This document shows, one piece after another, positions 16,105 to 17,321 of a stretch of 44,738 bases of DNA; the stretch's first letter is position 1, and the number at the start of each line of letters is the position of its first letter. The notes beneath the pieces were generated by a model that was not told the DNA's origin, made no database searches, and was given only the letters and a program-made list of their open reading frames with translations. The DNA is taken from sequence record PP925847.1; one strand, given 5' to 3'. The stretch comes from Escherichia phage Zumzum. The translations under genes and the position numbers were made by a program.

Positions 16105-16142
16105 TTGCAATCCGCGTATTGGTTGCACTATATTGGTTGCAC
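16105..16142 (+). promoter_or_regulatory. promoter TTGCAA-N18-TATATT overlapping two direct ATTGGTTGCAC repeats (16118-16128, 16132-16142)
   Basis: Read directly; drives the plus-strand cassette 16170-17289 inside the minus-strand head module. Confidence 0.5.
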
Positions 16143-16169
16143 ACCAACAGAGATATGAAGGAAAACAAA

Positions 16170-16484
16170 ATGACTAACATGACCGTAGCAACTCCAGTAG
16201 ACGCCGCAATGGCCCGTTTCAATAAAGCTACCGTAGCGAATACCTTTACCTTTCACGCAATGCGTAACGCGGAAGCGCTGAATCTGTGCCAGAGCATGAA
16301 TGCTTCCGAAGCGGCAAAAGCGGCGATCAACTCCGCAACATTAGATAATCCGGCTTGCGGCCTGGTTCCGGCATCTTTCATAAACGCCCTGGTCGAAGCC
16401 TTTAACGATTTCATGTGCGTCGATGCCGTTGAAGCTGTATGTGCCCGCTTAACTTCCACCGGTGGCAACATCAAATTCAACTAA
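16170..16484 (+). CDS. hypothetical Ala-rich protein (104 aa), first gene of an opposite-strand cassette
   Basis: ATG at 16170 with AAGGA ribosome-binding site; own promoter; orientation opposite to flanking structural genes. Confidence 0.55.
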   Translation: MTNMTVATPVDAAMARFNKATVANTFTFHAMRNAEALNLCQSMNASEAAKAAINSATLDNPACGLVPASFINALVEAFNDFMCVDAVEAVCARLTSTGGNIKFN

Positions 16485-16524
16485 ACCAATCGGGGGCGAA
16501 AGCCCCTAAAATGAGGACATAAAA

Positions 16525-17289
16525 ATGAGACTGACGAAAGACATTAAAAATCAGATTCTGGCTAACATCCTGCGCGACCACGAAATCGCAACCGAAGCCA
16601 AACAAATCATGATGGACTCACGCGATCTGGCGTACGCAATCACGCTTGACTGTATGCCGGAAGGCATTCGCACGTTCGCCGAGCTACTTGCGCGCATCGA
16701 AGCAATCGGCGATGACCCGTCGCAGATGTACGGCGTTTGCGTATACACCAACAAGGCGACGTATAGTTATAACACCGACCGCCCGAAAGGTATCGGCAGC
16801 GTTTACGACGCCACTTTCGAAATCAACGCAGGCGGAAACGTTCGCACCTTGTCCTTGAGCGGTGACGGTTACCAATACCGCGTACATCGCGGATACTGGG
16901 AATATAAATACATGAATAAGCTATCTCCCGATCTCGGCGATATCGTACCGGGGTTCGAGGAAGTTATGCTGGCTTCGGTGTGTGAAGTGGACAAGGACGG
17001 AAAATCGCTGCCGATCTATAAGCCACGCGGTCGCATAGACTACCCTGCGGACCACGATTTCTGCAAGCGCCTGGACCGTAACGACAAGGCCCGCCGTGAG
17101 TTGCGGGCTAAGTATGACGCGTTCAAACTAACTGTTACCGGCGTGCTGGATATGCACAATACCGATAAGAAGCTGATCAAGGCATGGCCTGAAGTTGAGC
17201 AATTCATCCCGTACCCGGACAAGCCAAAATCCACGGCGGTGGCGCTGGATGTGAAAACACTCAACGAGATTTGCGGCATTCCTCGCTAA
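16525..17289 (+). CDS. hypothetical protein (254 aa), second gene of the opposite-strand cassette
   Basis: GAGGA ribosome-binding site, ATG at 16525, terminator immediately downstream. Confidence 0.6.
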   Translation: MRLTKDIKNQILANILRDHEIATEAKQIMMDSRDLAYAITLDCMPEGIRTFAELLARIEAIGDDPSQMYGVCVYTNKATYSYNTDRPKGIGSVYDATFEINAGGNVRTLSLSGDGYQYRVHRGYWEYKYMNKLSPDLGDIVPGFEEVMLASVCEVDKDGKSLPIYKPRGRIDYPADHDFCKRLDRNDKARRELRAKYDAFKLTVTGVLDMHNTDKKLIKAWPEVEQFIPYPDKPKSTAVALDVKTLNEICGIPR

Positions 17290-17295
17290 CTGAAA

Positions 17296-17321
17296 AGGGG
17301 CCATTACGGCCCCTTAATTAT
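17296..17321. terminator. bidirectional terminator hairpin GGGGCC-ATTAC-GGCCCC
   Basis: Followed by TTAATTATTT on plus and preceded by an A-run; overlaps the 3' end of the o-spanin gene. Confidence 0.55.

Follow-up and report, generated by a model that had tools for sequence, protein, structure and literature searches.

A moron-like accessory island, probably expressed early, with a variable slot and nmad5 in the head module of a Dhillonvirus genome

Why do two genes on the plus strand stand amid the minus-strand head genes of Escherichia phage Zumzum (PP925847.1)? The DNA analyzed, called the window here, is the stretch of 44,738 nucleotides (nt) from this record. It is a Dhillonvirus genome, closest to Escherichia phage JLBYU60 (99.1% identity over a 1.4-kb query around the two genes, with positions 1-22363 of JLBYU60 corresponding in reverse complement to 1-22369 of the window). 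A first, sequence-only reading of this DNA had called the pair a classic moron carrying host-interaction or defense cargo. Both of its open reading frames are present, one running from ATG 16170 to TAA 16484 (104 amino acids, aa) and the other from ATG 16525 to TAA 17289 (254 aa). Our best description of the locus is a moron-like early accessory island in which one slot, here filled by the 104-aa gene, is variable and the other, occupied by nmad5, is semi-fixed. The fuller model, in which we have moderate confidence, is a self-contained accessory island in a virulent Dhillonvirus with early-type control and an Nmad5 protein of a binding type.

The comparison with relatives that the sequence-only reading had proposed bears this out: nmad5 is gone in phage HK578 and truncated in SM_S24, and slot 1 is either empty or filled by one of at least five unrelated genes. 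Slot 1 is a hotspot for swapping cargo between conserved flanks. It is empty in KarlBarth, McMelon, SM_S24 and four IMG/VR genomes, where the sequence reads ACACCAACAACGAGGAC. SM_W22, Zar3M, PTXU06 and HK578 carry a 135-172-aa gene at this place, which is also found in Serratia and Erwinia phages. Other alleles are a 53-aa gene, a 105-aa gene (phrog_2510) and, in locus L027 (~9400-9990), a 170-aa gene. The product of the last has a DnaN-like RYYLNG...SDGHRL pattern and matches phrog_3007 (E 5e-55); against Pfam DNA_pol3_beta_2, the beta-clamp central domain, it scores below threshold (E 7e-4). It may be a small beta-clamp-like cargo protein. On the 5' side the slot is flanked by ACACCAACA and then GAGATATGAAGG or ACGAGGA. 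On the 3' side come the hairpin GGGGCGAAAGCCCC, then AACAACGAGGAC and the nmad5 start codon. The hairpin between the two genes, already noticed in the sequence-only reading, lies at 16492-16507. As it follows three unrelated slot-1 genes and is absent where the slot is empty, it is the 3' boundary of an exchangeable cassette. How the exchange takes place we infer from the conservation of the flanks and the short repeats CCAACA and CAACAACGAGGA.

The 104-aa gene itself is found in about 60 of ~154-158 Dhillonvirus records. Beyond these records, homologues occur in a Pantoea Dibbivirus (63% identity) and in Ackermannviridae (56%). None of them adjoins nmad5, and we therefore rejected the idea that the two genes travel together in other phages. 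H29, C63, C83 and C91 are invariant in the family. The protein has no match in Pfam, NCBIfam or PADLOC, and a sequence-profile search of the Protein Data Bank (PDB) with its family returned nothing. The gene is true mobile cargo, and its product is probably an independent, horizontally mobile early accessory protein. The protein may bind metal through these four residues and may be a host-interaction factor. The start at ATG 16170 is favored by the alignments of homologues and by an AAGGA ribosome-binding site. JLBYU60 annotates the gene as 122 aa long from an upstream TTG (16119), which falls within the promoter repeats.

The second gene is not anonymous cargo, as had been supposed. Its 254-aa product is a full-length Pfam Nmad5 (PF18757, E 7.6e-59, with residues 1-253 on profile positions 1-206), and it is identical to JLBYU60 gp7. 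The earlier statement that neither protein shows an assignable motif thus holds for the 104-aa protein only. All signatures of the family are present: the N-terminal RL..I, G104, T213-x3-L-x3-WPE, P229 and the LN247...G-[LI]-P C-terminus. Nmad5 is coded for in ~147 of ~158 Dhillonvirus records, and the family, with 519 clusters at 50% identity, is a widespread early phage family. Because related genera carry it at other places in their genomes, nmad5 looks to have been relocated in Dhillonvirus rather than newly acquired. Scans with NCBIfam and PADLOC gave no match for Nmad5. The features of the island are as follows.

16015-16169, between the strands: divergent control region of the scaffold gene (minus) and the island (plus), 155 bp, near-identical among relatives whatever the content of their islands
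16105-16134, plus: putative sigma-70-like promoter, TTGCAA, 18-nt spacer and TATATT, predicted to be active from a consensus scan and conservation
16118-16142, plus: two direct ATTGGTTGCAC repeats (16118-16128 and 16132-16142), members of the TTGGTTGC motif family
16128-16149, plus: 22-nt block with the -10 element and initial transcribed region, duplicated at 26931-26910 (minus) in the promoter of the post-primase operon
16170-16484, plus: slot-1 cargo gene, 104 aa, phrog_24635 (open reading frame and PHROG match)
16492-16507, plus: GNRA-loop hairpin GGGGGC-GAAA-GCCCCU, conserved 3' flank of the slot-1 cassette (fold -12.4 kcal/mol)
16525-17289, plus: nmad5, 254 aa, Pfam PF18757 (199.7 bits against a cutoff of 27), phrog_1965
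17170-17172, plus: codon of K216; the K-to-E change gives escape from Tmn in phage SMA8 (PMC11846954)
17295-17315, both strands: putative GC-rich terminator hairpin where nmad5 and the o-spanin gene converge (fold -15.9 kcal/mol; HK578 annotation)

The neighbors are all on the minus strand. The scaffold gene (15310-16014) lies on one side and the o-spanin (17304-17543) and i-spanin (17416-17775) genes on the other, with the head-morphogenesis, portal and terminase genes beyond the spanins. The phage is virulent. The closest complete genome, that of JLBYU60, has neither an integrase nor a repressor in its annotation, and the Dhillonvirus literature consulted reports neither lysogeny nor an integrase. 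The GC content of the island is 0.45-0.55 against 0.53-0.59 for its flanks, with the dip mostly in the intergenic region. An Rfam scan of 15800-17500 found no RNA family.

Does the island have a promoter of its own, as the sequence-only reading held? A promoter scan finds TTGCAA at 16105-16110 and, after the spacer, TATATT at 16129-16134. The site and the two repeats that overlap it were recovered, but the match to the consensus is no better than chance. We consider the promoter credible despite this because the intergenic region is conserved and the TTGGTTGC core is over-represented. The region is near-identical in the window, KarlBarth, McMelon, SM_S24, SM_W22 and the IMG/VR relatives, and the core has 19 exact sites in the window against 1.76 expected, a count reached in none of 100 shuffles. 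In SM_W22 and the three GenBank relatives whose slot is empty, the two hexamers are 17 nt apart; in the IMG/VR loci L024 and L025 the distance is 18 nt, as in the window. The same layout, TTGCAA-N18-(TTGGTTGCAC)-TATAGT, is found near 41540-41575. A block common to the island promoter and a second one is present too (CTATATTGGTTGCACACCAACA), but it is 22 rather than 20 nt long and its other copy is on the opposite strand.

The TTGGTTGC sites are nearly all intergenic and in the non-structural half of the genome, the early/replication region, where they occur in both orientations and often in pairs. Six copies between 26919 and 27417, in the long gap after the primase-helicase gene, form the densest cluster, with 26919 and 26950 upstream of the post-primase operon and the rest from 27041 to 27417. 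Further sites are at 26365, at 30225 in a divergent early region, at 33104 and 33120 (to 33127) before the SSB gene, at 36932 before the kilA/helicase operon, at 39874 and 39891 (to 39898) before the Dam operon, and at 41552/41564 (to 41571) ahead of the genes there. Often the motif is the -35 element (TTGCAn) or lies in the spacer directly before a TATAnT -10 element. The sites could be operators of a phage regulator, origin iterons, or both. Since the island promoter is built from a motif that marks early and replication operons, the island is probably expressed with the early or middle genes and not with the head genes around it.

Other genes and sites touch on this motif family. The TTGCAA -35 element is self-complementary and, by eye, TTGCGA-N16-TAATAT on the minus strand beyond it (16060-16110) faces the scaffold gene, so the control region may hold back-to-back promoters for the island and for the scaffold/capsid genes. 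The first gene of the primase operon (29705-30034, minus), labeled a Gam-like nuclease inhibitor in JLBYU60, encodes a protein with a C-terminal helix-turn-helix of the sigma-70 region 4 / HTH_23 type; this protein is a candidate reader of the TTGGTTGC sites. Within the tail module a plus-strand gene (81-299) encodes a Cor-like lipoprotein of 72 aa with a signal peptide ending in LLSGC, annotated in JLBYU60 as superinfection exclusion. It is the sole other opposite-strand gene of the late region and has a TTGGTTGC/TTGCAA motif upstream at 18-25. It forms a second opposite-strand island, probably co-regulated with that of nmad5.

The hairpin at the end of slot 1 (z -2.8) has no T-run on the plus strand. 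Downstream of nmad5, a strong terminator had been proposed. A hairpin is found there (z -2.5), but its T tract is weak and it is common to the converging spanin operon. Its fold is equal on the minus strand and it overlaps the o-spanin stop codon, consistent with one structure serving the convergent genes. Terminators in both directions are annotated at the same place in the HK578 record.

How did nmad5 come to lie in a head module? The Edwardsiella phage eiAU belongs to the sister genus Eiauvirus, with 60% identity in the major capsid protein. There the scaffold gene comes immediately after the head-morphogenesis gene, and there is no island. In Dhillonvirus the gap between these two genes also holds the spanins. 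The Nmad5 of eiAU is gp32 (E 2.2e-68), encoded in the operon after the primase-helicase gene. It has its own promoter, TTGCAC-N17-TATAGT, with a CAACAACGAGGA leader like the Dhillonvirus one, and the gap upstream of it (L019:26890-27650) is full of TTGGTTGC/GCAACCAA motifs. The post-primase position in eiAU, together with the 22-nt block that the island shares with the post-primase promoter of the window, suggests that nmad5 was relocated with a copy of that promoter from the post-primase operon to the head module in the Dhillonvirus lineage. No second Nmad5 copy was detected at the position of the window equivalent to that in Guernseyvirinae.

Within the genus the island occurs in four states: with both genes, with either nmad5 or a slot-1 gene alone, and as a remnant. 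The type phage HK578 (L021:1679-2101) retains only a slot-1 gene. In SM_S24 (L012:2020-2574) nmad5 is frameshifted after about residue 168, leaving 185 aa without the C-terminal signature. SM_S24 is reported to be sensitive to Tmn, in agreement with the published result for an nmad5 deletion (PMC11846954). A single metagenomic contig (L020:1200-1562) encodes an 87-aa in-frame remnant in which residues 1-47 of the 104-aa protein run straight into the final 40 of Nmad5. One 14-bp promoter repeat is gone as well, and with it the TATATT -10 element. This looks like a decaying island, with an assembly artifact also possible.

Nmad5 is found in several other settings. Lambdoid carriers (mEp235, Kapi1, Stx phages and 21 prophage-like loci) have the gene in the pL operon, with N on one side and cIII/kil on the other, and 1-1.5 kb downstream of cI. 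Guernseyvirinae and related contigs have it at the head of an operon coding for a DUF2800 nuclease, an Enc34-type SSB and PolA, and in another set of contigs it is just downstream of PolA. Lambdoid Nmad5 belongs to the same family as the window protein, is early, looks accessory and has no modification enzymes next to it. Unlike the window protein, it is only ~208-227 aa long, is encoded co-directionally with its operon and occurs in temperate phages; the identity is ~32% over the C-terminal 100 residues. The Nmad5 of Yuavirus (M6-like) phages is of the same Pfam family and has the C-terminal signature in common, but only its C-terminal third aligns (~38% identity) and its gene sits among aGPT-Pplase, kinase, radical S-adenosylmethionine (rSAM) and pyridoxal phosphate (PLP) enzyme genes, none of which is in the window.

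The Dhillonvirus gene has already been linked to Tmn. Yamashita et al. (2025, PMC11846954) obtained Tmn-escape mutants with nmad5 K216E in SMA8 and K296E in SMS22, and reversion of the mutation restored sensitivity. Deletion of nmad5 was viable and gave no escape, leaving sensitivity unchanged, and the gene could not be cloned owing to its toxicity (PMC11846954). The same authors termed nmad5 a DNA modification enzyme and the SMA8 protein N-terminally truncated (PMC11846954). SMA8 nmad5 is the same gene at the same position (SM_A8 DNA is 94% identical over the whole island), and K216 is kept here, so the published properties, namely dispensability, toxicity when cloned and escape by K216E, should transfer to the window. 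Host-interaction or defense cargo, as first proposed, is partly supported: nmad5 is dispensable and linked to Tmn, but its deletion leaves Tmn sensitivity as it was (PMC11846954). Our data give no support to the published reading of Nmad5 as a modifying enzyme. An anti-Tmn function of the island was rejected, as anti-Tmn is ORF35 of SMS22 and is absent from SMA8, which carries the island. We also considered and rejected Ksap1, the trigger of KpAvs2, as the identity of an island gene.

The difference in length between the two published forms can probably be traced to annotation. McMelon has a 334-aa "long" Nmad5 (L011:1454-2458) whose first 80 residues are the promoter and the antisense of the scaffold start. 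The same frame is in the window at 15782-16177. The true start of Nmad5 is MRLTKDIK, kept down to ~25% identity. The McMelon length matches that of the published SMS22 form, in which the lysine is K296. The 334-aa protein of McMelon is an over-called reading frame, and the published long form appears to be an annotation artifact. A fusion with slot 1 as the origin of the SMS22-type extension was rejected, because the McMelon frame of identical length translates the promoter region.

We computed residue conservation on 137 diverse family members. K216 lies within the most conserved segment of the family, T213-x3-L217-x3-W221-P222-E223. At this position 122 of the 137 have K, R or Q, and the six commonest residues there (134/137) include no acidic one. 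Most conserved residues are hydrophobic, glycine or proline; the polar ones are only R2, T213, E223 and N247. Within Dhillonvirus the termini are invariant and residues 51-90 hypervariable. Nmad5 also diverges faster than its structural neighbors, for instance in locus L033 (IMG/VR 3300045988_050407), with the island at the same junction, where it is 37% identical as compared with 84% for the major capsid protein and 78% for the terminase. Either very fast divergence or replacement of the slot-2 allele would explain L033. A PDB sequence-profile search with the family gave no match, and a BFVD search returned only other Nmad5 proteins, including eiAU gp32.

The explanation that we propose is as follows. 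The island and the scaffold gene lie head-to-head. A sigma-70-like promoter made of the TTGGTTGC(A) motif that is native to the phage would drive the island. This motif would mark promoters or operators of the replication and early operons, and the island would be switched on with the early/middle genes and its transcription stopped at the hairpin common to the converging spanin operon. Slot 1 is a swap site between the conserved leader and the conserved stem-loop, as the comparison shows, and nmad5, in slot 2, would have entered the head module along with a copy of the post-primase promoter. Nmad5 would act early and without catalysis by binding a host or phage protein of DNA replication, recombination or immunity. 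The signature helix with K216 would be the contact surface, and charge reversal there would alter the response of the membrane NTPase Tmn to infection. Early protein binding with the K216 helix as contact is most likely, we infer, because K216E, an allele resembling a gain of function, escapes while the deletion does not and because an early phage protein, T2 RIIB, is known to activate Tmn by binding to it directly (PMC13001434). The hypervariable 51-90 patch, the fast divergence and the toxicity when cloned are counted as binding behavior as well.

Several points weigh against this explanation. Matches to the promoter consensus are at the chance level, with 3 sites in 5 kb against 3.0 expected; terminator-like sites are at chance as well (6 against 6.0). 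The early timing of the island rests on motif sharing only. The census of relatives, 39 IMG/VR loci, is biased by its search patterns to enterobacterial relatives. For the 104-aa protein the AlphaFold2 model has a predicted local distance difference test (pLDDT) score of 54, too poor for a statement on its fold. The Nmad5 model has a pLDDT of 67.5 and falls below 50 in the middle and the C-terminal tail, which makes missing fold matches weak evidence. Nmad5 may be an enzyme of an unrecognized type, and in Yuavirus its gene is inside a thymidine hypermodification cluster. A search for usable literature on other Nmad terms or on Dhillonvirus transcriptomes found none.

A possible though doubtful alternative is that the island genes encode dedicated anti-defense proteins, with the slot-1 alleles being alternative inhibitors and Nmad5 inhibiting some other system. 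The hotspot, with its many unrelated and horizontally shared alleles, and the early-type promoter would suit such a function. So would the N-cIII interval in which lambdoid nmad5 resides, which is home to ral and related counter-exclusion genes. A single change, K216E, neutralizes Tmn (PMC11846954), but the wild-type Nmad5 gives no protection from it. Neither protein has a PADLOC or NCBIfam match.

It is less likely that Nmad5 is an accessory of the phage replication/recombination machinery (DUF2800 nuclease, Enc34-type SSB, PolA and primase-helicase), as a loader, anchor or regulator, with its link to Tmn paralleling that of T2 RIIB. The gene heads that operon in Guernseyvirinae and adjoins PolA and DUF2800 in metagenomic contigs, the module is present in Dhillonvirus, Eiauvirus and Yuavirus alike, and lambdoid nmad5 is upstream of Erf/RecT, SSB and exo. 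The Tmn trigger RIIB has also been described as a replisome component (preprint, PMC13001434). However, nmad5 is dispensable in the laboratory (PMC11846954) and has been lost in HK578 and SM_S24, and the lambdoid carriers have a different replication system. Its rapid divergence and hypervariable patch suit an arms-race protein better than a part of the replisome.

Less probable still is that Nmad5 modifies DNA or nucleotides, either as an enzyme itself or as a cofactor that such an enzyme requires, with Tmn sensing or being blinded by the modification. This is what the Pfam family name implies and how the Tmn study read it (PMC11846954). In Yuavirus nmad5 is between aGPT-Pplase1 and a hydroxymethylase-type thymidylate synthase (PMC9476957); this association gave the family its name, and we saw it in Yuavirus only. 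Dam, a second methyltransferase and an SNF2 helicase are among the products of the window, and a HAD-like protein is encoded as well. Yet the window has no aGPT-Pplase, 5-hydroxymethyldeoxyuridine kinase, rSAM, PLP enzyme or hydroxymethylase. Enzymes of the thymidine hypermodification pathway (5-HMUDK / aGPT-Pplase type) are defined in PMC8989533, and such enzymes are within 10 kb in none of the 39 loci of the enterobacterial-biased IMG/VR sample. A paper that nowhere mentions Nmad reconstituted the modification of phage M6 in vitro with gp51-gp54. No constellation of catalytic-type residues is conserved across the 137 family members, and neither fold nor sequence comparison matched Nmad5 to an enzyme. 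The BASEL study contrasts the DNA-modified Nonagvirus and Seuratvirus, resistant to restriction-modification, with small siphoviruses such as Dhillonvirus. Deletion of nmad5 also leaves Tmn sensitivity unchanged (PMC11846954).

That both genes are head assembly or structural proteins on the other strand by chance has only their position within the head module in its favor and is effectively refuted: eiAU has no island at this junction, nmad5 is missing from HK578 and incomplete in SM_S24, slot 1 often has no gene (so that these are not conserved structural or assembly proteins at this position in all relatives), homologues in other phages are in early operons, no 254-aa or 104-aa protein is among the phage proteins in a 24-row table excerpt of the lysate proteome of the Dhillonvirus EE09, and the deletion is viable (PMC11846954).

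The binding explanation can be extended, tentatively. If it holds, Nmad5 would be misnamed and would be the founding member of an early family binding at the interface between replication/recombination and membrane-NTPase (Tmn-type) immunity, with the T213-L217-WPE helix as its contact and the 51-90 patch as an arms-race specificity element. To this would be added an undescribed cassette-exchange slot that shuffles small early genes between unrelated phages.

Already known were nmad5, its dispensability, its toxicity and its link to Tmn; added here are the promoter family, the slot-1 hotspot, the over-call of the long form and the context of K216. Dhillonviruses are common candidates for phage therapy of E. 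coli, and nmad5 is already an engineering handle for evading Tmn. Our results would redirect follow-up work, as Nmad5 is probably no modification enzyme, the published long form appears to be an artifact and K216 is in the signature helix. The island is a natural dispensable site with a conserved promoter for payload genes, and the slot-1 alleles are a short list of candidate host-interaction or counter-defense genes. Nmad5 is present in hundreds of phage lineages, including Stx-converting prophages.

Is the island then a moron? Lambdoid-prophage morons are units of promoter, gene and terminator inserted between late genes. The resemblance is considerable: the island stands on the opposite strand with a putative promoter and a putative terminator of its own, is inserted between late genes that adjoin each other in eiAU, and varies in content. 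To this extent the first reading of the layout stands. A virulent phage, however, offers neither prophage expression nor a benefit to the host, and the classical definition, which needs prophage expression, does not apply. The base composition is only slightly different and not clearly foreign, and one of the two genes is near-universal in the genus. A second parallel is the PeSL cassettes of T4-like phages, in which an early promoter and a stem-loop flank variable open reading frames. In slot 1, too, a variable reading frame is between a conserved promoter/leader and a stem-loop, with unrelated genes exchanged, although the phage group is a different one, there is no sequence relationship and there is a single slot here. 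The layout is real but largely of a known kind and not far from known phage genome organization.

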